Below, piece by piece: positions 31,990 to 50,861 of a stretch of 64,000 nucleotides of DNA (positions are counted from its first letter, which is position 1; every line of letters starts with the position of its first letter). The translations under genes and the position numbers were made by a program. The DNA is from Candidatus Omnitrophota bacterium. Its GTDB lineage: Bacteria > Omnitrophota > Gorgyraeia > Zapsychrales > JANLHA01. Under the pieces are notes generated by a model. It did no database searches, was not told where the DNA came from, and was given only the letters and a program-made list of their open reading frames with translations. Location: NCBI GenBank assembly GCA_963662715.1, contig OY759724.1, positions 460,670 to 524,669 on the forward strand, written 5' to 3'.

Positions 31990-33435
31990 TTAAAAATAAC
32001 ACATATTGTTTATAAAACTCACATTGATATTAATGAGAACCGTTTTGAGCAGGCTTACGATTAACAACCCCGTCCATAAAATATACGATAATTTCTTCAG
32101 GACATCCTGTGGCATGAACATGATTTTTTGAAAAACAAAAGCCCACGTATGCGCGCCCAATATCATTAAGAAAGGAATCGCCATCAGAATATACCGGGAC
32201 TGGTAATTCCCGTAAAGTGAATAAAAAATAAAATAGACGATGACATTCATTTTCATCCAGCCAAGAAAGCGTGCGTCTTCCGGGGTTTTCATAAAAAAAG
32301 CCGCGTAAGCCACAACGGATAACAGCGAAAACTCCACAAGTTTCCGCAAATAAAACAAACAGCCGTATTCCTGGATAAAATCCGCATGGAACCATGTTGT
32401 CTGGGGGAAGTGAGAGAAAGAGCCCCCCCTCATCAAGGGTTCCAACAAAAAATACGCGAGAAACAGGATGACGGACGGACGGATGATACGGATATGGTCG
32501 GCCTTAAACTGAAAGCCCGGTTCCGCCCCGGCCTTTTTCCGTTTAGCCGCAAGGATAACAGCACCAAAGAAACAGGCTAAAAGAACCAGAATAAATATCC
32601 GGCTTTTCACAGAAACAGAAAAGCCGTGTTCTCCGAGGAATTGATAAATATAATTCCCCCCGTAGACATGGAAATTCCAGAAAATCCACGGGACGGCCAT
32701 CAGTATCGGCAAAAAAAGGCTTATGAGGAACAAAGGTTGTTTGAGCGTTCTTCTGTCATAGAAATATACCGACAGCAGGACAGAAATACTTGTTAAGAAA
32801 CCGGGATATTTTGTGAGTCCGGCCAACCCCACAGAGCAGCCCCCCCACAAAAACAGCGCAGGATTATGGGTCTGAACTCCTTTGATATAGAAATAAACGG
32901 CCAAAAGGACAAAAAACGTCAACGTCGTGGACAACCATATCTTTTGGGAACAAATAATGCTGACGGGATCGCTGGCAGCAAGCAACGCAGCCAACAAACT
33001 GACTTTACGGCTGCAGCAGGACCGGCTCAAGAGATAGACACAGGGAATGGTCAGGCAGCCGAAAACAAGTGAAACGAATATAACGGCAAACGGTTTAGTC
33101 CCGAAGATCTTCAAGGATAAAGCGACAAGATAAGAATATACCGGAGGATGCTTAAAAAGCGGTCTGAACATATACGGCGGGAGTCCTTCGGGAGAAGAAT
33201 GGTGTTCAACAAATCCCTGTGTGTTATAGGCCAACGGATCTTTTTTCAGCTGGCGGGCGATACAAAAATACACATTTTCGTCAGTCGTCACCCGCTTTTC
33301 TCTTGTGCTGATGCTGAAGGCCGCAAATCTTGTCCCGAAAGAGAAAACCGTAATAACGGATAATAACACAAAAACCAGAACAGACCGGCTCTTTTCCGAT
33401 GCGGGTACCCGTTTAATGAGATTCAGTGTATGCAA
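31990..33435 (-). CDS. GT-C-fold glycosyltransferase of the ArnT/PMT (GT39/GT83) type
   Basis: N-terminal TM + first-loop motif (…FGTRFAAFSISTREKRVTTDENVYFCIARQL…FKHPPVYSYLV…), then >10 TM helices; 481 aa. Confidence 0.6.
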   Translation of the reverse strand: MHTLNLIKRVPASEKSRSVLVFVLLSVITVFSFGTRFAAFSISTREKRVTTDENVYFCIARQLKKDPLAYNTQGFVEHHSSPEGLPPYMFRPLFKHPPVYSYLVALSLKIFGTKPFAVIFVSLVFGCLTIPCVYLLSRSCCSRKVSLLAALLAASDPVSIICSQKIWLSTTLTFFVLLAVYFYIKGVQTHNPALFLWGGCSVGLAGLTKYPGFLTSISVLLSVYFYDRRTLKQPLFLISLFLPILMAVPWIFWNFHVYGGNYIYQFLGEHGFSVSVKSRIFILVLLACFFGAVILAAKRKKAGAEPGFQFKADHIRIIRPSVILFLAYFLLEPLMRGGSFSHFPQTTWFHADFIQEYGCLFYLRKLVEFSLLSVVAYAAFFMKTPEDARFLGWMKMNVIVYFIFYSLYGNYQSRYILMAIPFLMILGAHTWAFVFQKIMFMPQDVLKKLSYILWTGLLIVSLLKTVLININVSFINNMCYF

Positions 33436-33679: not shown

Positions 33680-34456
33680 ATGAATCTTACTAAAGAACTA
33701 GAAATATCCCAAACAGCCGCACAGCGGGCCGCGGAAGCCATTTTAGACATATATCACGGCCGGGCATTTCAAGTCGAGATGAAAGACAATAAAAGCCCGC
33801 TGACTTCAGCCGACAAGAAAGCCAATGACATTATTGTTAAAACCCTCTCCGAAACCTTCCCGGACTATGCGCTGCTGTCTGAGGAATCCCAAGACGACCG
33901 CCGCCGGTTAGCCAATAAATGGTGTTGGATTGTCGACCCTCTGGACGGCACGAAGGAATTCATAAAAAGAAACGGGGAGTTCACGGTCAATATCGCGCTT
34001 TCCTATGAAAACAGGGCCGTGCTCGGGGTGATCTATGTCCCGGTGACGCACGAAATGTATTATGCGGTGAAAGGTCAAGGGGCCTATCATGTGAAAAACC
34101 ATCATGCTTGTAGGATTTATGTTTCCGAGCGGAAGAAAGACATACGGCTTGTCATGAGCCGGTCACATGCCTCGGAACAGCTGCAGCGTGTTATCGATAA
34201 AAACGCGATCACCGATATCAAAAAATCCGGCAGCTCTTTAAAGGGGTGCCTGGTGGCCCAGGGCGCAGCAGAGATTTATTACCGCTTCAACCCCACGATG
34301 GAATGGGATACGGCGGCGATGCAGTGCATTGCAGAAGAAGCCGGAGGGATTTTCCGGCAATTGGATGACTCCGAAATGTTGTATAACAGGGAAAACAGCT
34401 TAAACAGCCGGGGATTCTATGTCCTTAACTGTGCGGACAACAAACTGGAACTCTGA
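33680..34456 (+). CDS. cysQ: 3'(2'),5'-bisphosphate nucleotidase CysQ (inositol monophosphatase family)
   Basis: WIVDPLDGTKEF metal-binding motif; …SEES… upstream acidic motif; 258 aa. Confidence 0.8.
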   Translation: MNLTKELEISQTAAQRAAEAILDIYHGRAFQVEMKDNKSPLTSADKKANDIIVKTLSETFPDYALLSEESQDDRRRLANKWCWIVDPLDGTKEFIKRNGEFTVNIALSYENRAVLGVIYVPVTHEMYYAVKGQGAYHVKNHHACRIYVSERKKDIRLVMSRSHASEQLQRVIDKNAITDIKKSGSSLKGCLVAQGAAEIYYRFNPTMEWDTAAMQCIAEEAGGIFRQLDDSEMLYNRENSLNSRGFYVLNCADNKLEL

Positions 34457-34596
34457 ATCTAAGAAATAACATTCCAACCTTTTACTGGGCCCACCTATAG
34501 TACCACTACTATAAACGACAATACATTAGTTAAGATTATTTGCCTTAAGATATCGCGGAAGGTCTCATGAAATGGGTCAAAGAGGATTCTTTTCCG

Positions 34597-36399
34597 TTAA
34601 GAAGATAAATTGGTATGAATCAATTCTAATATTTTCTCAACCACTTGCTCTCGCGGACTGTGTTCTGCAACATGCAAATCAGCCATCCCGGATGAGGAAT
34701 CCTCATCCCCCACCCAGACCGTTTTGATCTGGTCGTCATCAATCGAGGTATGAATGATCTCCAGGTCAGACTTTTGCAGCTCTATCGCCGTTATAATCAG
34801 TATTGTCCCCATATTCAACATGATGTTGGCGACCTCCGCAAGCCGGCGGAAATGTTCCGGGTGAGTGTCGGGATCATTCGTTAAATCAGCATCCAGACCG
34901 TGAATGACGTTACCGATCCCCAAGAAGTAAACCAGCTTTCCCTGCATAAAGAGCCTTTCCTCCAAGGCCCGGGCTATTTCTTTGCGAGGGGCATCCCGCC
35001 GTCCGGTTATTAAAATCAAAGCGGCTTTCTGCCCATATCTTTCAAAACGCTGCTCCCGGGAAATATTGCTCATAATCCACCGGTAATTGCGTTCGATGAC
35101 CATTTGCCTGACCTGGGATTGGGCGTCCTCGAGCGCCTCATAAATAATCCCGCCGCCGGATATGTTGTTTTGGTCAACAATAACGAATCTGCTGGTCGGG
35201 CTTATTCTGTCAGCCAGATCAAAGGCGATGGCCCGCGGCATTTTCAAAATGCACTTTGCCACCTCGTGGCGGGCAATCTTCTGGGCCGTATCAGTGCTGT
35301 CCAGGTTGGACGCGTTGAGGACTTGTTCTATTTTTTCAATCTCTACCGGGACTTTCATAGTCCCGAGTTTGAGATGATATGTTTTACCCAGCTCCATGGG
35401 AGCCCGTCCCATCCAGAATAAATTAACCTTAATTCTGGAGGTGACCTCCGGGGGATGGCCATGAAAAGCGGTTAACATTTCTCCTCTTTTAACATAAATC
35501 TGCTCGGTTAACGTCAGTCCAACAGCATAACCGGCCCCGATCCCCGGCACAGCAGGCTGGTTAAACATTTCAATGGATTTGACATAGCTCTTCTTGCCGG
35601 AGGGATAAAAAACAACTTCATCCCCCACGTTGACGGTTCCGGTACTGATCGTTCCGCTGATGATACGGCGGTCATCCTGGAACTTCGTGAATTTATAAAT
35701 ATCCTGGACCGGCATCCGCAACGGCAAATTTTCATCAATATCCTTTTTATGAAATTCATCTAATATTTCAAAGACGGTTTTCCCGAAGTACCAGCTTAAA
35801 TTCTCCTGCCGTTCGGAAATCATATCTCCCTCCCGTCCGCTGACGGGGATAAAACATGTCGCCTGAATTCCAATCTTTTCCAAAAATTCCTGATACTGTT
35901 GACTGATTTGTCTGAAAACATCCTCCTCATAGGAAACGAGGTCCATCTTGTTCACGAGGACAGCGACCTGTTTTATTCCCAGCATAGACAGCATGTAGCC
36001 GTGTCGGCAGGAATTCTCCTGAACCCCCTCCTTGGCGTCGATCACTAAAAGGGCCGCTTCGGCCCGCGCAGCCCCGGTGACCATATTCTTCAAGAACTCG
36101 ATATGTCCCGGAGCATCAATAATGATGTAGTGGCGTTTGGACGTCTTAAAAAAAACCCTGGCAGAATCTATGGTAATGCCCTGGGCTTGTTCATCCTTTA
36201 AAGCGTCTAACAGAAAAGCATACTCGAAGGGTTTGGAATTATTTTCACATTGCTGACGGACCTGCTCAAGCTTCCCCTGGGGCAGAGAGCCGGTATCTGC
36301 CAGCAGGCGGCCCACGATAGTGCTTTTGCCGTGGTCAACGTGTCCCACAATAACGATATTCATGAATTGAGATGTCATAATATTAAAGAGTTGCCGCAA
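34597..36399 (-). CDS. cysN: sulfate adenylyltransferase GTPase subunit CysN fused to a degenerate APS-kinase-like C-terminal domain
   Basis: G1 [16 protein letters not shown]3 DAPGH, G4 NKMD. The C-terminal ~170 aa align to the APS kinase fold (…[11 protein letters not shown]…) but the P-loop is replaced by [11 protein letters not shown]. Confidence 0.85.
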
Positions 36400-36460
36400 C
36401 TATATATTGATTAACCGAAACAATGTCCTGAACAAAACTCGAAAGCCGGCCGGTTCCGCC

Positions 36461-37342
36461 TTACATATAACCTTCTCTTCTCAAGGTTTCCAGCCCCCCG
36501 CCGTCATCTTTATCCTGCGCCCGGCCGGAACGCTCAGCGATATTGGAAAATTTACCGGTCCTTAATTCTTCGATGATATCATCGACGTTCTTAGCGGTAG
36601 ATTCCACCGGGAGAGTACAGGGATAACAGCCGAGAGACCGGTAGCGCGTTCCCTTTCCCTGATCATAATACAGAGAAACGGTCGGAATCCCTTCTTTTTT
36701 GATATATTCCCAGATATTCAACTCCGTCCAATCCAGCAAAGGATGAATCCTTAAATGTGTGCCTTCAGAAAAATCTGTATTAAACTGATCCCAAAATTCC
36801 GGCGGCTGATCGCCAATATCCCAAAGGCTCTCTTTGTCCCTGGGGGAAAAATACCGCTCTTTGGATCTTGAGCCCTCTTCATCGGAGCGAATGCCGACGA
36901 TGACCCCGGTGAAGGACTCGGTGCCTGTATATTCCTCATAAAGATCCTTGTCATGATTGAAACGGAAACGCGGCCCTGTTCCCTCCAGCGTACTCTTAAG
37001 GGCGTCGGTTTTAAGAAGCCGGCAGCAGCGCAGACGGTCCACTTGTCCGTCCGGAAAAGTTTGTTTTTCTGCCAGAGCCGCCTGATTCTGGCCGTAAAAC
37101 ATATTCAAATGCCATTCCCGGGTGAGCCGGTCACGATATTCGATCATTTCCGGGATCTTATACGCTGTGTCGATATGCACCAGGGGGATCGGGACGTGCC
37201 CGAAAAACGCCTTGCGGGCAAGCCACAACAGCACAGTACTGTCCTTGCCAATGGACCAGAGCATGCAAAGATTTTTAAAATTCGCATAGGCTTCTCTCAA
37301 GATATAAATACTTTTATTTTCGAGTTCTGTTAAATGGTCCAC
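36461..37342 (-). CDS. cysD: sulfate adenylyltransferase subunit 2 CysD (PAPS-reductase-like ATP-PPase fold)
   Basis: PP-loop [12 protein letters not shown]; 293 aa; immediately upstream of cysN. Confidence 0.85.
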
Positions 37343-37370
37343 ATCCGGTGCCCTCGTTAAAAATACACGC

Positions 37371-38096
37371 CTATATATTCAAATAGCGGTCTATTTGTTT
37401 TTTAAGGCAAGAAAATGTTTCTTCTACCGTCTGCCCCTCGGTCTTGATAACAATTTCAGGGTTCTGCGGTCTTTCATAAGGATCATCGATACCCGTAAAA
37501 TATTTGATTTCTCCGGCCCGAGCCTTTTTATATAATCCTTTAACATCACGCTGTTCACATATCTCAATCGGCGTGTCGACATGAATCTCCACAAAATTTT
37601 GACACAAATCGCGGACAAAATTGCGGGCATCCTGATAAGGCGAAACAAAGGAAGACACAACAATAACTCCGTTACGTTCAAGCATAGAAGCAAGAAATCC
37701 GACCCTCTTGATGTGATTATCCCGTTCTTCTTTTGTAAAACCGGTCTTAGGGAAGACCGAACGGACGACATCCCCGTCTAAACGCTCCACCCGCAATCCC
37801 TTTTCGGCGATATAATCGTAGGCCCGGCTGGCCAGCGCGCTTTTCCCGGACCCGGATAATCCCGTAAACCAGAGAACAAAAGGTTTGACGCTTTTTTTGC
37901 CGAAAGAGATTTTATTCCAGACACGTTCATGAAAGAAATATAAAATCATCTTTGCAATAATTTCAATGCCTCCCACAGACACGGCCAGGAAAAATCTTTT
38001 CGTAAAAAAATAAACAATGGTGCACGTCGTAATCGTTGCCCAAATACGCCAGGAAATGGTCTTTAATATCGACCGGCTTCTTTTTTCAATATACAT
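37371..38096 (-). CDS. cysC: adenylyl-sulfate (APS) kinase CysC with an N-terminal ~70-aa two-TM (DUF2061-like) extension
   Basis: Intact P-loop [13 protein letters not shown] and LDGDVVR motifs. The N-terminus ([31 protein letters not shown]…[17 protein letters not shown]) is hydrophobic. Confidence 0.8.
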
Positions 38097-38512: not shown

Positions 38513-39145
38513 TCAATGAAAATCGTTACGATTCCGATACTCCTGTTGTCTGACAAATAATATCGGAAACACAATATCGCTTAAGCAGCAGGGAATCCAC
38601 ACGGCCAGGAAAAGAAATATAAATATCCCGAAATAAGACGCGGGATGCGTATGATCAGCGGCCATGAGCATGTGAAAAAGCGAAGCCCAAGTGCTGATAA
38701 GCACGTGCCCGGCGTGAGGATATTTCGTTACAGGCCGGAAATACGCTAAAAGGATCCCCGCAAAAGCGGCGGAACTGATCAGCCAGCTCTTTTCCAATAC
38801 CCCGATATGGGCATGCCGGTGCGGCATATCCAATAATATTTCCCCCCAGAAAGGGATAATGGAGTCGCTCAGCGTGCCGATGCCGACAGAGCCAATATAT
38901 CCCACGGCTAAAACCTTCCAGATACGAAAGCCGCGTCTTTTCTCACGCGGTTTGTAGCGGCAAAAAAGCGCTGTCGTCACAACCGCACTTAAAAAAACGT
39001 GCAGGGGATGAAAGATATAAAATAAGCGATGAGAAATTTCATGCGGCATCCCTCGAAACATCATCATCAGAATAATCCCGGTCAATGCCCCGAACAAGGT
39101 AAAGGGATAGTGCTCCTTTAATTCATTGAGAATTCTTCTTAACAT
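38513..39145 (-). CDS. His-rich polytopic membrane protein (possibly a YdjM/DUF457-like metal-dependent membrane hydrolase)
   Basis: Several conserved-looking His in TM regions (HRLFYIFHPLH, HRHAHIG, AADHTHP); adjacent to the Fur-family regulator. Confidence 0.35.
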   Translation of the reverse strand: MLRRILNELKEHYPFTLFGALTGIILMMMFRGMPHEISHRLFYIFHPLHVFLSAVVTTALFCRYKPREKRRGFRIWKVLAVGYIGSVGIGTLSDSIIPFWGEILLDMPHRHAHIGVLEKSWLISSAAFAGILLAYFRPVTKYPHAGHVLISTWASLFHMLMAADHTHPASYFGIFIFLFLAVWIPCCLSDIVFPILFVRQQEYRNRNDFH

Positions 39146-39305: not shown

Positions 39306-39722
39306 TTAAACTTTCTGACAGCTGTCGCAAATCCCGTCTAACTGCAGAAAATGGTCAACAATCCTGAAGCCATTGACACTTCTCTTGCGAAAAAGATCGC
39401 ATCCCGCAATCTCTCCGACTTTGCCGCACCGGATACAGACAATATGATGATGGTGGACCCCGCCTTCAGCATGGCACAGGCCGTAATAACGGTTATTGTC
39501 AAACTTATGTATGCGGGTCAAAATCCCATACTCTGTTAAAGACTCAAGATTCCGGTAAACGCCCGGCAGGCCGCACTGCCGAAATTTCCGGCGGAGTTTT
39601 TCATATACTTTCTCCGGAGTCAAAAACTTATTGTTTTTATAAAAGATTTCGATAATAGCGATTCTTTTGGGAGTGCTTTTTAAAGGACAACTTTGAAGTT
39701 TTTCAAGATATCTGTCCAGCAT
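39306..39722 (-). CDS. Fur-family metalloregulator (Fur/Zur/PerR type)
   Basis: Winged-helix N-domain; HHHH + CxxC (HHHHIVCIRCGK) and C-terminal CDSC metal sites. Confidence 0.75.
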   Translation of the reverse strand: MLDRYLEKLQSCPLKSTPKRIAIIEIFYKNNKFLTPEKVYEKLRRKFRQCGLPGVYRNLESLTEYGILTRIHKFDNNRYYGLCHAEGGVHHHHIVCIRCGKVGEIAGCDLFRKRSVNGFRIVDHFLQLDGICDSCQKV

Positions 39723-39826: not shown

Positions 39827-40684
39827 TTAAGGAGTAATTAATTTTAAAGATTTAGGCAGAATCTTAATGTGAACAGACTTATACCTCAAAATCTCCCCGT
39901 CGCTTTGAAAATGCTGCTTCGGATCGGATGTGATTTCGATTTCCCGGACCTGCCAGTGCCTCAGGAAGCCACGAAAAATATTCTTTCTTCCTTCAAAAAT
40001 ATTTTTTAAATCCGTATGATTGATAATAATAACGTCCAGCAACCCGTCATCGACCTGAATTTTAGATGATATGGAGATTCCCGGCAAACCCAAATTTCCG
40101 CTATTGGCGACAATGCACGCCAGGCCTCTTTCCTCGTACTCCTTCCCATCTAATGTTAACTGATACAGAGACGGAGTGGTTTTTAACGCCGCTTTTAAAC
40201 TGTTCAGCGCATAGGCCAGCCACCCGATCCTGGTCTTGATATCCGGTTTTGTCTCTCTGACAACTTCGGCCTCAAAACCGCTGCTCACTCTTATCAAAAA
40301 ATACTTGTGCCCCATCTGTCCCACATCAATCTCCCGGATACGATGCTGGCCCAGGCACAAATTAACCGCTTTCTCAACATCCTGGGCTATTCTTAATTCA
40401 TTGGAGATCACGTTAGCCGTGCCGCCCGGGAGAATAAGCAACGGGGTTTTTCCGCCAATCAAGGCTCCAGCGGCTTCCTGGACCGTTCCGTCCCCGCCGT
40501 AAATAACGATCACATCCGCGTTTTCAGCAACCGAAAGCTTCACAAACCGGGAAACATCCTCTTTGTTTTTAGTGACGTGCACGTCCCAGGACACCTTCTG
40601 GCGGGACAACACTTTATTTAAAGTGTAAAGGACCGGGTATTTCATGCCCGATGAGGGATTTATGATAATGCTTAACCGTTTCAT
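39827..40684 (-). CDS. DAGK-catalytic-domain lipid kinase (YegS/sphingosine-/ceramide-kinase-like)
   Basis: LSIIINPSSG…VIVIYGGDGTVQEA…LPGGTAN are the canonical DAGK_cat motifs. Confidence 0.75.
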   Translation of the reverse strand: MKRLSIIINPSSGMKYPVLYTLNKVLSRQKVSWDVHVTKNKEDVSRFVKLSVAENADVIVIYGGDGTVQEAAGALIGGKTPLLILPGGTANVISNELRIAQDVEKAVNLCLGQHRIREIDVGQMGHKYFLIRVSSGFEAEVVRETKPDIKTRIGWLAYALNSLKAALKTTPSLYQLTLDGKEYEERGLACIVANSGNLGLPGISISSKIQVDDGLLDVIIINHTDLKNIFEGRKNIFRGFLRHWQVREIEITSDPKQHFQSDGEILRYKSVHIKILPKSLKLITP

Positions 40685-40806: not shown

Positions 40807-41199
40807 TCAGGCCCGCAGACTCTTATAGGAAATAAAAAAGATAATCATAAAAATCAGATCAAAGAATGCAAACGGGACCCAAATCCAGGGCATTTGACCT
40901 GCCAGCCAGTGCGGGAATACGACTAAGCAGTAGGAGAGCTTAATCAGGACAGCATAAATGATAAGACTCCTGTTGGCAAGGGGGTCCCTGGCGATATTAA
41001 AAAGCATATAGGCGAAAATGACCAAAATGCAGGCCGGGAACTGGACATACCCGATATGATTGGGCGGGGGGATCTGTACGGCATGAAAAATGGCCAGCGG
41101 CGCAATAAGAAAAGCGGCTCCGAGAATACCGTCATAAAACGCTGCCACGATATAAAAGGGTTTGATCCATTTAGGGATATTCATATTTTCCTCTTTCAT
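40807..41199 (-). CDS. small four-TM membrane protein, unknown function
   Basis: Hydrophobic throughout; lies between the UbiA gene and lipid kinase 1. Confidence 0.4.
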   Translation of the reverse strand: MKEENMNIPKWIKPFYIVAAFYDGILGAAFLIAPLAIFHAVQIPPPNHIGYVQFPACILVIFAYMLFNIARDPLANRSLIIYAVLIKLSYCLVVFPHWLAGQMPWIWVPFAFFDLIFMIIFFISYKSLRA

Positions 41200-41234: not shown

Positions 41235-42206
41235 CTAAGCCAAAGCATCTTTATGAAAATCAAATAACCAGCCAATAAGGACAAAATTGATCAGGTAAAG
41301 CATCCCGGAAAGAAACGGATGCAGCAAAGCTATAAAACCGGTCTCATAGAGTACCGCGCCCCTGAATGTCCATTTCAGCGAGTAATATGTCTTTTCACCG
41401 TGTGCGTTCCGAAAAAACAACACGGCCGTGTACTGCATGATCAGAAAAGTCAATACCATCAATCCCGTAAAAAAGGGATTAATACAGCCTTTCCAGGGAT
41501 CGAAAAAGAACATGAAAACAACAATCCCGAAGGGAAGGCTGCTCATCATAACGTTCAGATATTTTGCTTTTCCGGGAGACAACTTGACAACAATCGTTTT
41601 GATCCCGGCCGCCTTATCCCCCTGATAATCTTTAAAATACGTATAAAAAGCGACTGCCACATTCATGAGAATCACGCCTAAAGCCAGGACAGCTAACTGA
41701 GCATCCGCCATAATTTCCAGCCCTTTTCCGTTCAAACACATGGCACCGTAATAAAGACACGGCGCAACAAGACAGCCAAAAACAATATTCCCCAGGATAA
41801 GAATTCTTTTGGAATATTCATAAACGATATTGAGGAGAAAAACGAGCACATACAGGGTTAAAGCATATGGATTTAATAGAAGCGTTATTCCGGCCCCCAA
41901 TACAAATAATCCCGCGCTTATACCCACAGCCGAACCGACCGGAAGTCGTCCCGTGACAAGCGGCCGGCGGGGCGCATTGATTCTGTCTTCTTTAAGTCCC
42001 AACAGATCATTGATGACCTGGTTGACGCCCCACCCCACAAAAACGACGGTCAAAACAAGCGCCGTTCTAAAAGGAGTGATCTCTGCCCCGCAGAATGCTA
42101 TCCCCAGGCACCCTGTCATGCCGGAGATAAAAAACAAATACGGACGCATGGATTTTATATAATTTAAAATAACACTCCTGGAAAATATCATACTAGACCT
42201 TTTCAA
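41235..42206 (-). CDS. UbiA-family prenyltransferase
   Basis: First Asp-rich motif NDLLGLKEDRIN (NDxxDxxxD-type); second motif YFKDYQGDKAAG; ~8 TM helices. The start overlaps the upstream gene by 14 nt. Confidence 0.75.
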   Translation of the reverse strand: MKRSSMIFSRSVILNYIKSMRPYLFFISGMTGCLGIAFCGAEITPFRTALVLTVVFVGWGVNQVINDLLGLKEDRINAPRRPLVTGRLPVGSAVGISAGLFVLGAGITLLLNPYALTLYVLVFLLNIVYEYSKRILILGNIVFGCLVAPCLYYGAMCLNGKGLEIMADAQLAVLALGVILMNVAVAFYTYFKDYQGDKAAGIKTIVVKLSPGKAKYLNVMMSSLPFGIVVFMFFFDPWKGCINPFFTGLMVLTFLIMQYTAVLFFRNAHGEKTYYSLKWTFRGAVLYETGFIALLHPFLSGMLYLINFVLIGWLFDFHKDALA

Positions 42207-44556
42207 TCAGACGCATTTTTTTATACAGGGGGACCTCTTCCTTGTTTTGAAACTGCTCCATAAGCTGCAGCGCATCCTCACCCGTTACTGGGAATGCCGT
42301 AATCTTCTTCTCTTCTATATACCGGCGTATCCTGCCATGCTCGGAATTACACAGCCAACTTAGACACGGCTTCTTAAAATGTGCCCTCATACGGTCAAAA
42401 ATCACAGAAAAAGGCTCCTCTTGAACATTGCCGCAGGAAACATTTAAAAATTCACAGGGCTGAATTTCTCCGTGAGCGTTCACATAAAAACGCTCGATTC
42501 CCCCGGCCGTGCATCCGAAGGCCTCGGGGGAAGATTCAAAAACCTGCATGGAAAGCGACGGGAAATCCCGAAGCTCCCTGGCCTTGTTCAAACGCCAGTG
42601 ATCGGCGCAAAGACGGGCGATCAGCTCCCGATCCATTAAAGTGTTCCCCCTCCGGAGCCATCCCCCGGCAGGTTTTTCATGAATAACCTGCACAAAACTG
42701 CAGCCTAGTTCCCTGCCAAGCTGCAATATCTTTTTTATGCCGTCATCCATTATCATCTCCCGGGAAGGACAGCAATTGATGACAGCCGTAACACCTGTAT
42801 CTGCAAATATGCGGATCGCCTTGCAGGCGATCCGAAAAGCTCCTTCAAAGCCCACAAACTCATCGTGCTTTTCAGCCTCCCAATGATGCAGGGAGACCAT
42901 CACTCCGAAAAGTCCGGCCTGCCGGAGACGCCAGGCCTTTTCATAAGTTAATGTGTGCCCCGTGGTGTTCACCCAGACTTCCCTCTCAGAGTCCAGAGAC
43001 CCGATGAGTTTTAGCAAACGTTCATATTTTAATAAAGGTTCGCCGCCTTCGATATCAAACATACTTATACCGGCATGCTGAATATCACGGGCGAGCCGCA
43101 AGAGATCGGCTTCCGGCAGGTCTTCACCGGCGTCACGTTTTTGATAGCAGTGCCGGCAGTGATACCCGCAGGCTTTTGTCATGGAAAAAACAACTGTTGT
43201 CGGATAGGTTGCATCATCGGTGATCAAAAATTTATCGATGGCTTTATAAAAAGCCCTGCTTGGAAAAGCCGGAAGATACAAATGTATTTTATAGACATTA
43301 TTTATTTTTACGGCCTTGTTATACCCGAGGACTTTCGAGAGGAGAAGCATTCTTTTAACGAAAAAAGCATACTGTTTCAAGGTTATCGCCCCCTTCAACA
43401 AACGGACGAAATACCGCAAAAAAATTGTCAGGCCCATTGTCACATCTAATAATATGCGGCCGAAACCGACAACAAACTGCTGTTGCAAGGGCCTCTGTCT
43501 GTCATAGGGGATTGGCAGGAAACCATTCTGCCGCCACCAGCGGACTGTTTCTGCGACACCCTGCTCCAGGGACACCGTCTGTTTAAAACCCAAAACATCC
43601 CCGGCTCTGGCCGTAGCATAAACATTATGACAATAAAACATCTTGACCCGGGCCCGGGTCAAAAGAAAAGGTTCTTTGGCTCCCAGGAGCTTCGCCATAA
43701 GTTCCAAAAACACGGCTGAAGGATAAAAGACCCACAAAGGGAGATATACCGGCGGTCTTATCCCTAAATTCCGGCAATATAAATTAAAATATTCCCGGAT
43801 GTTCGGGGCCCGGTCATTACCCATGTTAAAAACATGAACCCCGGATAAATCCTTTTCCAAGGCGAGCAGCATGCCCCGGACCAGATCTTTCACATGAATA
43901 ACGTGAAATCTATTGGTGCGTCCCATCGGCATGACCCGCATCCCCTGCAAGACAGCGCGGCAGAATTCATACGGCCCCGAATGAAACTCCCTGGGGCCAT
44001 AAACCCAGACCGGACGTATCACGACCAAATTCAAATCACCTTCCCCGGCTATGCCAACGGCTTCCTGCTCCGCCAGCATTTTCGTTTCGCGGTAATAATT
44101 CATATCTGACGGAAAAATAGCCGACAGAAAATATGGCATGTCCGGCCGGTAAGGGGCTTCTTCCGGCTTGGGCTTTTCTTCATCCTCTTCACCCAAAACA
44201 GCAATGCTGCTTACCAAAACAACCTTTTTCACTCTTTGCTCCTTGGCCGCACGAACAACATTGCGGGTCCCCTGAACATTGATTTCATGAAAGTCTTTCT
44301 TCCGGCCCCAGTCAGAAGCCAAAGCGGCCACATGAAAAACGGCGTCACAGCCGCTCATCGCTTCCGTCACTCCGGCAGAGTCCCTAATATCCCCATAGCA
44401 AATTTTGATCTTGTCTACCGGGAGAAACCGCAGATCACTGCCCGGACGCAGCAGAACCGTCACCTCATATTGACCGGCCACTAAACGGTCCACCAGATGA
44501 CTGCCGATAAACCCCGAAGCCCCGGTCACAAAGACTTTCCGTATTCCGCTGTTCAT
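42193..44556 (-). CDS. fusion protein: N-terminal extended-SDR NAD-dependent epimerase/dehydratase-like domain + C-terminal radical SAM domain with a SPASM/twitch-like Cys-rich extension
   Basis: VFVTGASGFIGSHLVDRL (Rossmann fold), YRETK (YxxxK); hydrophobic linker; CGYHCRHCY (CxxxCxxC); C-terminal FGCTAGG…GEIQPCEF…C…C auxiliary-cluster pattern; 787 aa. Confidence 0.8.
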   Translation of the reverse strand: MNSGIRKVFVTGASGFIGSHLVDRLVAGQYEVTVLLRPGSDLRFLPVDKIKICYGDIRDSAGVTEAMSGCDAVFHVAALASDWGRKKDFHEINVQGTRNVVRAAKEQRVKKVVLVSSIAVLGEEDEEKPKPEEAPYRPDMPYFLSAIFPSDMNYYRETKMLAEQEAVGIAGEGDLNLVVIRPVWVYGPREFHSGPYEFCRAVLQGMRVMPMGRTNRFHVIHVKDLVRGMLLALEKDLSGVHVFNMGNDRAPNIREYFNLYCRNLGIRPPVYLPLWVFYPSAVFLELMAKLLGAKEPFLLTRARVKMFYCHNVYATARAGDVLGFKQTVSLEQGVAETVRWWRQNGFLPIPYDRQRPLQQQFVVGFGRILLDVTMGLTIFLRYFVRLLKGAITLKQYAFFVKRMLLLSKVLGYNKAVKINNVYKIHLYLPAFPSRAFYKAIDKFLITDDATYPTTVVFSMTKACGYHCRHCYQKRDAGEDLPEADLLRLARDIQHAGISMFDIEGGEPLLKYERLLKLIGSLDSEREVWVNTTGHTLTYEKAWRLRQAGLFGVMVSLHHWEAEKHDEFVGFEGAFRIACKAIRIFADTGVTAVINCCPSREMIMDDGIKKILQLGRELGCSFVQVIHEKPAGGWLRRGNTLMDRELIARLCADHWRLNKARELRDFPSLSMQVFESSPEAFGCTAGGIERFYVNAHGEIQPCEFLNVSCGNVQEEPFSVIFDRMRAHFKKPCLSWLCNSEHGRIRRYIEEKKITAFPVTGEDALQLMEQFQNKEEVPLYKKMRLIEKV

Positions 44557-45482
44557 GAGACAATCACCTCTAAACTCTTTGGCAGCACCTCAATGGTTGC
44601 CGGGAGTTTCCCCCTCATGTCACCGTCGAATTCAATAAAGACGTCCTCCCGCTCCGAACAAACTTCAACCTTTCGGCCATAACGCATGCCCGCATGTTTG
44701 TACTCCATGAAATCACCGACATACAGTTTAGGGACGTTCGCAAGCAATGAAAACAAGCTGCCTTTTCTTAATGAGAACAAAAAAAGCTTCCCGTCATCAG
44801 GAAGCACATCACTAAAGACTCTCATCCCGGAAGCCAGATACGGATCTTTACCGACGGTTAAATTGATTAAAGATGTGAAGTCCGTCTTTTCTCCGTCTAT
44901 TTTCACTTTCAAATCAACACCCTGAAAATTCCAGACAGCTGTTAAGGAAGACACCAGCGTCCCCAGAAAATCCCCCAGGTATTTTCTATAACGTGAATTG
45001 GCCTTACCGGCGATATGCGGCCCAAGCCCCACGTTGACGCTGCTGCCGAAATAAAACACTCTTTCGTCTCCGGCCAGGTCCCGGAAAGAGACTTTGCCCA
45101 CATCAACGCTCCGGGTTCTGCCGGCCAACAAGGCTTCAAGGGCCTCATCAAGGCGGACAGGGATATGACAATACCGGTTAAAGTCAGGACTTGTTCCGAC
45201 GTGCAGTACGCCCAATGTCCTGGACGCGGCCGGGCTGTTCTGCCGCAGGCCCGTTATCACTTCACAGATCGTGCCGTCACCTCCGACAGCCACCACCACA
45301 TCATAATCCCTTTCCCCGGCCTGCCGTGATATATCGACGGCTTCATCCTTTCTCGAAGTCATCTGATAATCAAAATCAACCTTCCGGAGCTTCATTTCGG
45401 AAATAATCCGCCGGCACTGTTTATACGCACCGCCTGATCTGGCCGTCGGGTTCATAACCAAAAAATACTTCAACGGAGCCAT
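44553..45482 (-). CDS. second DAGK-catalytic-domain lipid kinase
   Basis: FLVMNPTARSG…VVVAVGGDGTICEV…LGVLHVGTSPDF; stop/start ATGA overlap with the downstream fusion gene. Confidence 0.75.
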   Translation of the reverse strand: MAPLKYFLVMNPTARSGGAYKQCRRIISEMKLRKVDFDYQMTSRKDEAVDISRQAGERDYDVVVAVGGDGTICEVITGLRQNSPAASRTLGVLHVGTSPDFNRYCHIPVRLDEALEALLAGRTRSVDVGKVSFRDLAGDERVFYFGSSVNVGLGPHIAGKANSRYRKYLGDFLGTLVSSLTAVWNFQGVDLKVKIDGEKTDFTSLINLTVGKDPYLASGMRVFSDVLPDDGKLFLFSLRKGSLFSLLANVPKLYVGDFMEYKHAGMRYGRKVEVCSEREDVFIEFDGDMRGKLPATIEVLPKSLEVIVS

Positions 45483-46660
45483 TCCGGCTTCTCCTGCTTT
45501 ATCTCCTCAAACGCTGAAATCGTTTTATCGATGTCCTCATCTTCCAGCAGGGCGTTCACCGTTAAACGGATCCGCGCCGTGTTCTTGGCGACGCTCGGAG
45601 GGATGAACGGGACGCCATAAATGCCCCGCTCGGAAAGCATTTTGGCAGCCAGGAACGTGTTTTCGCTGGTCTTAAACACAACCGACACCAGCGGGGTCGT
45701 TGAGCCGGTCAGGTTGAATCTCATCTGATCCAGGGCCTCATACAGCTTCCTGGCGAGCCGCATGATTTTTTCTCTTAGCCGGGGGTGATCTTCCACGTAG
45801 CGCAAAGAAGCGATGGTCGCTCCGGCCATAACAGGCGGCAATGCGGTTGAATAAAAATACATCGGGGCCTTATAACGGAAGCCGTCAATAATATCGGCCT
45901 TGCCGGCGATAAACCCGCCAAACGTCCCGACAGCCTTGCCGAAAGACCCGGTCATCAAATCCACATCCTGATAAGTGTCCGTCAGTTCAAGAATTCCCCG
46001 GCCTTCCCGCCCCAAGACCCCCAACCCGTGGGCATCATCAACGATCACAAAAGCGTCGTGCCTGCGGGCAACATCCGTGAGTTCTTTAAGCGGAGGGGTG
46101 TCTCCGTTGGTGCTGTAAAGCCCTTCCAGGACAATAAACTTGACGCGATAATGACAACACCGCAAGAGGGTCTTCTCAAGTTTGTTCATATCATTATGCG
46201 GGAAAATCTTAAACGCCGCTTTCGATAAGGCCACACCGTTTAACAGGGATGAATGAATCTCTTTGTCGGCAATAATAACATCGTTCTCCCCGGCCATGAG
46301 CTGAAACAGGCTCATATTGGCCTGATAACAGGAAGGAAAGACCAAAGCATCTTCCTGTTTAAGAAAACGGGCCGTAGCCAGTTCCAGTTCCCGGTTGACA
46401 GCGGACTGTCCGACGACAATAGGGGTCCCGCACAAACTCAAACCGAAAGTCTCTAAAATCTTCGTCGCCTCCTTCTTGATGACGGCATTATTAGCGATGC
46501 CCAGATAATCATTTGTTCCTAAAGAAACCATTTTTCTGCCGTTAACGGTAATTTCCCGGGCCAGCCCGCTCTGAACGATCTGATAATAGGCGTTGAAGTT
46601 TATATCGTCTGCCAGCTTTTTATCAATGTACAAGCTATCAATTAATTCTTTTTTGGACAT
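45470..46660 (-). CDS. PLP-dependent alpha-oxoamine synthase (serine palmitoyltransferase / BioF / CqsA family); Spt-like by context
   Basis: LGTNDYLGIANN substrate loop; PLP-lysine block TGSFGKAVGTFGGF; probable start MSKKELIDS; overlaps the downstream kinase gene by 13 nt. Confidence 0.8.
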   Translation of the reverse strand: MSKKELIDSLYIDKKLADDINFNAYYQIVQSGLAREITVNGRKMVSLGTNDYLGIANNAVIKKEATKILETFGLSLCGTPIVVGQSAVNRELELATARFLKQEDALVFPSCYQANMSLFQLMAGENDVIIADKEIHSSLLNGVALSKAAFKIFPHNDMNKLEKTLLRCCHYRVKFIVLEGLYSTNGDTPPLKELTDVARRHDAFVIVDDAHGLGVLGREGRGILELTDTYQDVDLMTGSFGKAVGTFGGFIAGKADIIDGFRYKAPMYFYSTALPPVMAGATIASLRYVEDHPRLREKIMRLARKLYEALDQMRFNLTGSTTPLVSVVFKTSENTFLAAKMLSERGIYGVPFIPPSVAKNTARIRLTVNALLEDEDIDKTISAFEEIKQEKPEWLR

Positions 46661-46849
46661 ACGCGTCTCCTCATGTTGTTTAACCCTGCCCTTAACTTGT
46701 TCACGTGCTGCTTTTCCGCCCCCTCTTATTCCAAAATGTGTTTCCCCCGGACAAAAGGCATGCCCTGATGACAAGAATCCCATTTCCTGGCGTCTGGCTT
46801 ACCGTGGGTGGCCGGCGTGAGGTGTGAAAATAATTTTGTCTACACAAAA

Positions 46850-46878
46850 AGTTTACCACTCAATTATTTATCTGTCAA
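46850..46878 (-). promoter_or_regulatory. candidate sigma-70 promoter for the Spt-like operon
   Basis: Minus-strand TTGACA (46878-46873) - 17 nt - TAAACT (46855-46850), ~190 nt upstream of the proposed start. Confidence 0.35.
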
Positions 46879-50078: not shown

Positions 50079-50861
50079 CTATGCTCCGGCCACAAAAAAA
50101 TAAAAAGCGGCAGCCGCCAGGACACGGTAAACCCCGAAAGCCACAAAATTATTCCGCTGGATAAAATGCAATAAAAATTTGACCCCGGCCATAGCCACAA
50201 CGAACGAGGTCACAAACCCTACAGCCAAAAACATCATTTGTTCCGTGTTTAAAGAGACGAAACCAAAACTCTTAAACAAATCCAAAGCCGTTGCCGCAGT
50301 CATCGTAGGGACGGCCAGGAGGAAAGAGAATTCCACAATCGTTTTGCGCCGCAGGCCCAAAACCAATCCTCCGACGATTGTGGCCGCTGACCGTGAGACA
50401 CCGGGGACCATCGCCAAAGCCTGAAAAAAGCCGATCAAAACCGCGTCACGGTAAGGCAGACGGCTCAGATCGTCCTTGGCATCGGGTTTCTCCTGATAAC
50501 GTTTCTCAAAAACGATCAGGAAAATCCCCCCCAGGAACAGCGCGCCCACCACGACCCCCGTGCTCCCCAAAAGAACCGTCTTGATGACCTTATAAAAAGC
50601 CAGCCCCATTATGGCCGTAGGGATAAAGGCCGCACAGATCCTCTTCAGGACCTCAATATTCACTAAGAACGACCGCGCATAAAGAACGACCACCGCTAAA
50701 ATGGCTCCCATTTGAATCGCAATCTCAAAACTCGTCAAAAAATCCGTCTGAGGAAGACCAAGAAGCTTGGCGGCAAGGATCAGATGCCCGGTTGAAGAAA
50801 CCGGCAGGAATTCTGTTAACCCCTCAACAACTCCTAAGATAAACGCGGAAAATATATTCAT
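50079..50861 (-). CDS. uppP: undecaprenyl-diphosphate phosphatase UppP/BacA
   Basis: MNIFSAFILGVVEGLTEFLPVSSTGHLIL and the second PGxSRSxxT motif (PGVSRSAATI). Confidence 0.85.
   Translation of the reverse strand: MNIFSAFILGVVEGLTEFLPVSSTGHLILAAKLLGLPQTDFLTSFEIAIQMGAILAVVVLYARSFLVNIEVLKRICAAFIPTAIMGLAFYKVIKTVLLGSTGVVVGALFLGGIFLIVFEKRYQEKPDAKDDLSRLPYRDAVLIGFFQALAMVPGVSRSAATIVGGLVLGLRRKTIVEFSFLLAVPTMTAATALDLFKSFGFVSLNTEQMMFLAVGFVTSFVVAMAGVKFLLHFIQRNNFVAFGVYRVLAAAAFYFFVAGA

Follow-up and report, generated by a model that had tools for sequence, protein, structure and literature searches.

A fused SDR-radical SAM protein of an Omnitrophota bacterium and its place in a conserved, lipid-type operon

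The window analysed here is a stretch of 64,000 nucleotides from a Candidatus Omnitrophota genome (contig OY759724.1 of assembly GCA_963662715.1), and its subject is an open reading frame (ORF) at 42193-44556 in which an extended short-chain dehydrogenase/reductase (SDR) is joined to a radical S-adenosylmethionine (radical SAM) enzyme. It is a genuine fusion and lies within a conserved, widespread and uncharacterised operon, on balance probably one for lipid biosynthesis, whose enzymes would act in the order alpha-oxoamine synthase (AOS), SDR, lipid kinase, UbiA-family prenyltransferase and radical SAM enzyme. The conserved core of the operon consists of these five activities: the AOS, a lipid kinase of diacylglycerol kinase (DAGK) type, the extended SDR, a twitch-type radical SAM enzyme, and a UbiA protein resembling digeranylgeranylglyceryl phosphate (DGGGP) synthase. 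The fused protein is made of known domain types in a new combination, and neither its architecture nor its radical SAM half falls in a characterised family. Its parts are as follows:

42193..44556, minus strand: the SDR::radical SAM fusion ORF, 787 amino acids, with an ATG start and its stop codon at 42193-42195
43516..44538, minus strand: extended SDR domain (residues 7-347), with TGxxGxxG at 11-18, Arg37 after strand beta-2, Ser116, and Tyr155-x3-Lys159
43489..43515, minus strand: fusion linker of about 9 residues (348-356), of low model confidence, matching a 28-nt intergenic gap in Desulfosporosinus orientis
43201..43488, minus strand: conserved N-terminal extension of the radical SAM unit (residues 357-452), made up of two long helices (364-387 and 393-410) and a small sheet, together with an LYLPAFP motif
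42532..43200, minus strand: radical SAM core (residues 453-675), with C463-x3-C467-x2-C470 (DNA 43147-43170), GGEP at 504-507 and the near-invariant C619
42337..42531, minus strand: twitch-like (partial SPASM) region (residues 676-740), with C682-x13-G696-x4-C701 and C736

The first-pass annotation, made from the letters of the sequence, had described a 787-residue frame without internal stops, and this is present on the minus strand; the plus-strand translation of the same interval has many stops. The motifs that it had named in the N-terminal half are also there, TGASGFIG at residues 11-18 and YRETK at 155-159, with Ser116/117 upstream, and Pfam places an Epimerase domain (PF01370) over residues 8-246 (E 8e-40; 137.2 bits against a gathering threshold of 20.9). 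Both the TGxxGxxG Rossmann motif and the pattern YRx[TS]K are conserved throughout the fused homologues. By the general rules for SDRs, an arginine after beta-2, with no acidic residue there, goes with NADPH; the SDR half has Arg37 at this point and lacks the acidic residue, which suggests that it prefers NADPH.

In the C-terminal half, the Radical_SAM domain (PF04055) covers residues 458-592 (E 2e-14; 54.4 bits against 29.5), with a further match to Fer4_12 (E 5e-7). The motif CGYHCRHCY is found at 463-471; its three cysteines C463, C467 and C470 are invariant across the aligned radical SAM homologues, a GGE motif follows at 504-506, and at least 90% of the aligned sequences share C619. The C-terminus had been called SPASM- or twitch-like. 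The second term is the right one: the pattern C682-x13-G-x4-C701 and C736 is invariant, only the first SPASM motif is present, there are cysteines enough for one auxiliary cluster, and the fold resembles that of BtrN, SkfB and MoaA, and the region is therefore twitch-like, having a single auxiliary cluster. A full SPASM domain (PF13186) is not found, its score being 19.5 bits against a cut-off of 21.5, and CX2CX5CX3C is absent.

The two halves had also been described as separated by a hydrophobic linker, and here the annotation has to be revised. The hydrophobic helix at 364-387 was considered as a transmembrane linker and rejected: it contains arginine and aspartate residues, is found conserved in the unfused proteins too, and has a confident packing in the model of the radical SAM unit alone. 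It is the first helix of an extension of about 95 residues that is present in all of the stand-alone radical SAM homologues as well as in the fused proteins. The true linker is the short segment 348-356, which has a similar length across the fused clade. AlphaFold2 models both the full-length protein (predicted local distance difference test, pLDDT, 91.8; predicted template modelling score, pTM, 0.81) and the radical SAM unit alone (pLDDT 93.2, pTM 0.93) well, and in the former only residues 351-353 fall below a pLDDT of 50.

A search of 5.8 billion proteins returned 18 other full-length fused protein clusters, 47-61% identical to the protein and drawn from independent JGI, ENA, NCBI and Logan assemblies, together with stand-alone radical SAM proteins of about 435 residues that cover the C-terminal 55% of the query. 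In a scan of GTDB, with one genome per species, relatives of the fused protein were found in at least 146 species, spread over many phyla and mostly anaerobic, the nearest being metagenome-assembled genomes (MAGs) labelled Planctomycetia and Omnitrophota. The arrangement of the SDR and radical SAM genes was classified in 88 loci, these being the best 80 of the 146 GTDB relatives and loci fetched earlier. They form one continuous frame in 8 of the 88, are adjacent separate genes, often overlapping in different frames, in 24, and lie at opposite ends of one operon in 32; in the remaining 24 the flank was too short or the SDR was not found. The cultured D. orientis DSM 765 shows well how the two halves correspond to separate genes. 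The SDR half aligns with its SDR gene at 40% identity and the radical SAM half with the adjacent radical SAM gene at 34%, both without gaps; the first gene ends opposite residue 347 and the second starts opposite residue 357, with a 28-nt gap between them. A 124-residue ORF upstream of a stand-alone Omnitrophota radical SAM gene was checked as a possible SDR remnant, which it is not.

It is scarcely credible that an error of assembly or sequencing has joined two genes into this one ORF, even though many relatives have two genes, some of them overlapping in different frames, such that a one-base error could fuse them. The same frame occurs in the 18 other clusters and in 8 fetched loci, its linker varies little in length within the clade, and a neighbour-joining tree of the radical SAM parts (unbootstrapped) groups every fused protein in a single clade; the linker DNA is in frame and shows no repeats, no homopolymer and nothing else to suggest a frameshift. 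The first-pass annotation had proposed that separate genes in related genomes would indicate such an error. Separate genes are indeed common (the 24 adjacent and 32 distant pairs above), yet the fused frame recurs. The same frame in independent assemblies at this degree of divergence, together with the single clade, argues from the sequences that the ORF is a lineage-specific evolutionary fusion of neighbouring genes and not an assembly error.

The annotation had further supposed that a redox step and a radical step are physically coupled. They are joined in this protein, but since the SDR and radical SAM enzyme are separate in most relatives, the fusion is not required for the chemistry; it merely tethers two consecutive enzymes, and physical coupling is optional. 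Other fusions point the same way, in that the radical SAM enzyme is elsewhere fused to UbiA, in P0210 (739 residues, L089 283-2502) and P0213 (721 residues, L090 6219-8384). The L089 gene heads a compact operon in which it is followed by genes for the kinase, a ThiL-like protein, an old yellow enzyme (OYE) flavoreductase, the AOS and the SDR. A distant paralogue, P0235, is fused to a PlsC-type acyltransferase. Taken together, the SDR::radical SAM, UbiA::radical SAM and PlsC::radical SAM fusions suggest that SDR, radical SAM enzyme and UbiA belong to one membrane-associated pathway. It is worth adding that the radical SAM paralogues at about 30% identity (P0235, P0272, P0302 and P0216) have fusion partners of several kinds: PlsC-type acyltransferase, SAM-dependent methyltransferases or, in a protein of 1467 residues, a DUF362 domain.

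The fused gene had been placed within a lipid operon, and its neighbours bear this out: the genes are of lipid type and translationally coupled, overlapping or abutting in the order AOS, lipid kinase, SDR::radical SAM, UbiA and a membrane protein of 130 residues. The features of the operon around the fused gene are:

46850..46878, minus strand: candidate promoter of sigma-70 type ahead of the operon, with TTGACA-17-TAAACT and a TG extension, recognised only by its match to the consensus
45470..46783, minus strand: AOS, a pyridoxal 5'-phosphate-dependent enzyme of the BioF/KBL/SPT family (Pfam Aminotran_1_2, E 2e-49)
44553..45482, minus strand: lipid kinase of the DAGK_cat/YegS family, with DgkB as its closest solved relative
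41235..42206, minus strand: UbiA-family prenyltransferase (Pfam UbiA, E 2e-28)
40807..41199, minus strand: hydrophobic protein of 130 residues, confined to the fused-type clade and found in 19 loci
39827..40684, minus strand: second DAGK_cat/YegS lipid kinase, 122 nt after the preceding gene and of uncertain membership in the operon

The AOS frame as listed begins 41 codons before the start of its orthologues, which have 396 residues, and its true start is likely to be Met42, at 46660. Its closest solved relative is the serine palmitoyltransferase (SPT) of Sphingobacterium (8guh, E 7e-63). The NCBIfam models all score below their cut-offs (SPT 288 at best against 500, bioF 331 against 426, KBL 304 against 460). 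The stop codon of the kinase gene overlaps the start of the fused ORF (ATGA), and UbiA likely starts at the ATG at 42191, one base past the fused-ORF stop. For UbiA the best solved relative is DGGGP synthase (6m31, E 4e-14), and the best NCBIfam models are likewise of DGGGP synthase type, at E 1e-26 and 93.5 bits, below the cut-off of 269; decaprenyl-phosphate phosphoribosyltransferase follows at E 4e-5. The canonical first Asp-rich motif of UbiA proteins is NDxxDxxxD. In the window and in the UbiA genes of 58 related loci the first motif is N-D-x-x-G-x-x-E-D, with glycine instead of the middle aspartate, and the second is K-D-x-x-G-D.

The 130-residue protein has no match in Pfam or NCBIfam. 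In the Omnitrophota loci L004 (9382-9759), L015 and L019 it stays beside the radical SAM gene, and there is no AOS, SDR, kinase or UbiA gene within 8 kb; this suggests that it is a direct partner of the radical SAM enzyme. The second kinase is about 20-25% identical to the operon kinase and has no orthologue at that position in related loci; it may replace the ThiL-like kinase of other clades, or may be unrelated. Homologues of the ThiL-like protein, OYE and ketosynthase were sought across the whole window and are absent, and Rfam gave no match in the window.

All ORFs of the 88 fetched loci and the window were clustered into families, and the families recur in these numbers of loci:

radical SAM enzyme: 85 loci
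DAGK-type kinase: 76 loci
UbiA: 62 loci
AOS: 57 loci
ThiL-like AIRS protein (kinase-like): 41 loci
OYE flavoreductase: 35 loci
130-residue membrane protein: 19 loci
ketosynthase: 13 loci
MMPL exporter: 6 loci

The cassette of the window recurs in an Omnitrophota MAG and in an ENA metagenome contig. In loci of Planctomycetes-Verrucomicrobia-Chlamydiae (PVC) type, labelled Verrucomicrobiota, Lentisphaerota and Planctomycetota, the typical order is UbiA, radical SAM, kinase, ThiL-like, OYE, AOS and SDR. The operon of D. orientis DSM 765 (L091; CP003108.1, about 2,174,600-2,184,050) runs UbiA, OYE, acyl carrier protein (ACP), AOS, kinase, ThiL-like, ketosynthase, SDR and radical SAM, thus having a dedicated ACP of 80 residues and a ketosynthase, and it is preceded by a helix-turn-helix regulator. 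An orthologue of its UbiA is also found in D. lacus, D. nitroreducens and D. shakirovi. Three bins labelled Woesearchaeota, Nanoarchaeota and Thermoplasmatota (L020, L024 and L062) hold this bacterial-type operon on short contigs, pointing to mis-binning or to transfer into archaea.

The domain architecture had been described as unlike any characterised family, and the model scores agree, neither half of the fused protein reaching an NCBIfam cut-off. For the SDR half the best models are the hopanoid-associated HpnA (TIGR03466; 174.2 bits against 367.65) and the OleD-type NF042423 and NF042422 (137.2 and 108.2 against 580), and the best matches in the PDB are 3wj7 and NSDHL (6jkg). For the radical SAM half they are those of the haem-pathway enzymes AhbD (88.7 against 500) and NirJ2 (87.8 against 500), with HpnH (TIGR03470) at 37 against 225. 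The model for Tes (NF045702) falls outside the 25 best of 38 matches, which puts it below 31 bits against a cut-off of 450; it scores 55 bits with a distant paralogue. Ten remote radical SAM paralogues at about 30% identity were also run against NCBIfam, and none reached a cut-off. The existing names of homologues are automatic ones, such as 'nucleoside-diphosphate-sugar epimerase'. In an exhaustive HMMER search of 1.84 billion representatives, the radical SAM family amounts to 188 clusters (50% identity) at E <=1e-30.

By sequence, the closest solved relative of the radical SAM half is SkfB (E 2.5e-7). Comparison with solved structures puts it in the SPASM/twitch clade, the scores being 24.6 for SkfB, 22.8 for BlsE, 22.7 for SuiB, 22.4 for viperin, 22.1 for PqqE, 21.0 for anSME, 20.4 for MoaA, 18.9 for GDGT-MAS (in 11th place), 16.5 for DesII and 14.3 for BtrN. 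However, it differs from the SPASM/twitch enzymes (SkfB, BlsE, SuiB, PqqE, anSME, MoaA and BtrN) in several respects: identity is 15-18%, no family cut-off is reached, the extension at its N-terminus is unique to it, its SPASM motif is limited to the first half, and the genetic context is that of a lipid and not of a peptide or cofactor. Its likeness to the radical SAM enzymes of lipids (Tes/GDGT-MAS, Mss, Gms, GrsA/B, Cds and HpnH/J) lies in its setting, being encoded or fused with membrane-lipid enzymes, in anaerobes, and beside an archaeal-type prenyltransferase.

Two known systems help to place the other enzymes. The core of bacterial sphingolipid synthesis (Spt, bCerS, CerR and a dedicated ACP, as in Caulobacter, Sphingomonas and Bacteroidota) has in common with the operon an AOS close to the solved SPTs beside an extended SDR of the Epimerase family, which is the domain type of CerR; the dedicated ACP of D. 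orientis and the DAGK-type kinase are further points of likeness. This comparison of the SDR with CerR is one of domain type and gene context, both Epimerase domain type and co-occurrence with an AOS holding for it. The operon differs from the sphingolipid core in having no ceramide synthase, in the added UbiA and radical SAM enzyme, and in the low score of its AOS with the SPT models. The second system is archaeal DGGGP synthase, to which UbiA is nearest in both structure and model scores. By analogy, UbiA would prenylate a lipid that already bears one chain and a phosphate. Unlike the archaeal enzyme, however, it scores far below the cut-offs, has the variant first motif and occurs in bacterial hosts. 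No geranylgeranylglyceryl phosphate (GGGP) synthase was seen in the operon.

From these likenesses a pathway can be proposed. The AOS would condense an acyl-ACP or acyl-CoA with an amino acid, serine or alanine being the likeliest, to give a 2-amino-3-keto long-chain base. The SDR half, probably with NADPH, would reduce the 3-keto group to an amino alcohol, which is the role of ketosphinganine reductase or CerR, and the kinase would then phosphorylate the long-chain base. UbiA would attach a polyprenyl chain to the phosphorylated backbone, as DGGGP synthase does with GGGP. Lastly the radical SAM half, at the cytoplasmic face of the membrane and beside UbiA, would draw on SAM and on its [4Fe-4S] cluster to remove a hydrogen atom from this same lipid, the auxiliary cluster (C682, C701, C736 and probably C619) handling an electron or binding the substrate. 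The outcome would be a change made without oxygen, for example a desaturation, an elimination or the formation of a C-C bond close to the head group. A new tailoring chemistry within a lipid operon, which had been suggested for this gene before, is put forward here as a hypothesis.

In support of this proposal, we note the consistent lipid character of the enzymes: the AOS is nearest SPT, the kinase nearest DgkB, UbiA nearest DGGGP synthase, and the SDR nearest the lipid-acting SDRs OleD, HpnA and NSDHL, with an ACP and a ketosynthase in D. orientis and an MMPL exporter in some loci. Several points weigh against it. The bioF, KBL and SPT models score about equally for the AOS, and therefore do not fix its substrate, and no ceramide synthase homologue is found in the operon. 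It is a guess which atom UbiA would prenylate, sphinganine-1-phosphate having an amine and not a hydroxyl at the position equivalent to the GGGP acceptor. The SDR of the PVC-type operons is only about 25% identical to the fused SDR and may not be orthologous to it. The ThiL-like kinase and OYE reductase, common in relatives, are missing from the window, and therefore the pathway may differ between clades. Finally, the structures nearest to the radical SAM half (SkfB, BlsE, SuiB and viperin) are generic and point to no particular radical reaction.

A bolder form of the proposal, which we regard as speculative and rather unlikely, is that the operon makes a glycerol-free 'sphingoid-archaeol hybrid', a class of bacterial membrane lipid not described before, with an amino-alcohol phosphate of sphingoid type, formed by C-C condensation, bearing an isoprenoid linked by the UbiA of archaeal DGGGP synthase type and tailored without oxygen by a new family of twitch radical SAM enzymes. 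If true, such a lipid would cross the divide between bacterial and archaeal lipids, and would be found in many anaerobic phyla: Omnitrophota, Planctomycetota, Verrucomicrobiota, Lentisphaerota, Riflebacteria, Bdellovibrionota and Desulfosporosinus (Bacillota).

A different, though unlikely, role for the two halves can also be proposed. In this scheme the radical SAM enzyme abstracts the carbinol hydrogen of a vicinal amino alcohol or diol, ammonia or water is lost, and the SDR reduces the resulting ketone, so that a coupled radical 1,2-elimination and ketoreduction leads to net deamination or deoxygenation of the long-chain base. Precedents for radical elimination followed by NAD(P)H-dependent ketoreduction are DesII and the pair AprD4 (radical SAM) and AprD3 (NADPH reductase), which resemble the present case in pairing a radical SAM enzyme with a reductase that depends on nicotinamide, and in acting on a vicinal diol or amino alcohol. 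The adjacent or fused position of the SDR and radical SAM genes in 32 loci fits consecutive action on one carbon, and the operon has no N-acyltransferase to use the amine. However, the structural matches are only to the generic radical SAM core, and there is no membership of a sequence family. In addition, the PVC-type SDR adjoins the AOS, far from the radical SAM gene, which suits a plain ketoreductase better, and the minimal operon has a single SDR, already needed for the AOS product.

It is also doubtful that the radical SAM enzyme modifies the hydrocarbon tails, whether by C-C coupling as in Tes/GDGT-MAS and Mss, by cyclisation, or by HpnH-like addition of 5'-deoxyadenosyl to a prenyl double bond, leaving the SDR as merely an upstream ketoreductase. 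All characterised lipid radical SAM enzymes do act on tails or rings, and here the enzyme is fused or adjacent to a prenyltransferase resembling DGGGP synthase; moreover there is the weak match to HpnH, and the best model for the SDR is HpnA, which is hopanoid-associated. These matches are, however, far below their cut-offs (37 against 225 and 174 against 368). Tes is missing from the top 25 matches, though it reaches 55 bits with a distant paralogue, GDGT-MAS comes only 11th by structure, and only one auxiliary cluster site is conserved.

That the operon serves a cell-envelope glycan or carrier lipid, and not a membrane lipid, we judge improbable. Here the SDR would act as an epimerase or dehydratase of nucleotide sugars, in keeping with its Pfam match and with the automatic name of its homologues; UbiA would be a polyprenyl-phosphate glycosyl- or phosphoribosyltransferase, as is decaprenylphosphoryl-5-phosphoribose (DPPR) synthase, for which it has a weak match; and the radical SAM enzyme would tailor a sugar, the nearest radical SAM structures that act on small molecules being those for sugars or nucleotides. 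A PMT_2 glycosyltransferase and BacA are also found elsewhere in the window. However, they lie 8-10 kb off and are not conserved with the operon, whose steady partners are the AOS, lipid kinase, ACP and ketosynthase and not glycosyltransferases, while UbiA is far closer to DGGGP synthase (1e-26 against 4e-5) and the best SDR matches act on lipids.

That the radical SAM half is a maturase of ribosomally synthesised and post-translationally modified peptides (RiPPs), as its closest solved relative, the sactipeptide/thioether maturase SkfB, might imply, is very improbable, since the fetched loci hold no conserved precursor-peptide gene or set of peptidase and transporter genes, every conserved partner and fusion partner is a lipid enzyme, and the half comes near no maturase cut-off in NCBIfam. 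It does not answer to the description of a maturase of SkfB, AlbA or PqqE type, with an adjacent precursor peptide, an N-terminal recognition element and a family-model score.

Returning to the proposed AOS-to-radical SAM pathway, no description of the cluster was found in the literature on SPT or AONS with radical SAM, UbiA and DAGK, on DGGGP synthase with SPT, on UbiA and radical SAM in ether lipids, or on sphingolipids of Desulfosporosinus. A 2026 review of lipid-modifying radical SAM enzymes covers only Tes, Mss, Gms, GrsA/B, Gmm, Cds, HpnH/J/P/R, Jaw5 and the ladderane enzymes, and contains nothing like the enzyme of this operon. Genes of sphingolipid type are now known from dozens of bacterial phyla that are anaerobic; the Spt-like ones have been reported in many such phyla, and frequently bCerS or CerR is not close by. 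Many sphingoid bases with a single unsaturation are present in anoxic waters. These facts call for an anaerobic route, although neither of them ties those lipids to this operon.

The question on which the operon bears is thus how anaerobes complete or modify sphingolipid-type lipids without oxygen, and often without a known ceramide synthase or reductase. Its interest lies in the way in which the SDR::radical SAM and UbiA::radical SAM fusions join five enzymes into one pathway, bringing together sphingolipid-like chemistry, archaeal-like chemistry and a radical step. Should the product prove to be a membrane lipid, the operon could be a source of unassigned environmental lipids, and a new function would be defined for a radical SAM family of 188 clusters. 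Because the operon is present in the cultured and fully sequenced D. orientis DSM 765, the question can be tested directly.

The genes further away in the window include a complete sulfate-activation module for 3'-phosphoadenosine 5'-phosphosulfate (PAPS), at 33680-38096, which is 1.7-6 kb downstream of the lipid operon. The neighbouring features are:

31990-33435: PMT_2 (ArnT-like) glycosyltransferase, not conserved with the operon
33680-34456, plus strand: CysQ-like Inositol_P phosphatase of the PAPS module
34597-36399: CysN of the PAPS module
36461-37342: CysD of the PAPS module
37371-38096: adenosine 5'-phosphosulfate (APS) kinase of the PAPS module, with an N-terminal DUF2061 membrane domain
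38513-39145: His-rich membrane protein of 210 residues that weakly matches DUF1275, lying between the lipid operon and the PAPS module
39306-39722: Fur-family regulator, likewise between the lipid operon and the sulfate-activation genes
50079-50861: BacA undecaprenyl-diphosphate phosphatase, not conserved with the operon

No sulfotransferase was recognised with the PAPS module. The module could supply sulfate for sulfated lipids like those reported in euxinic waters.

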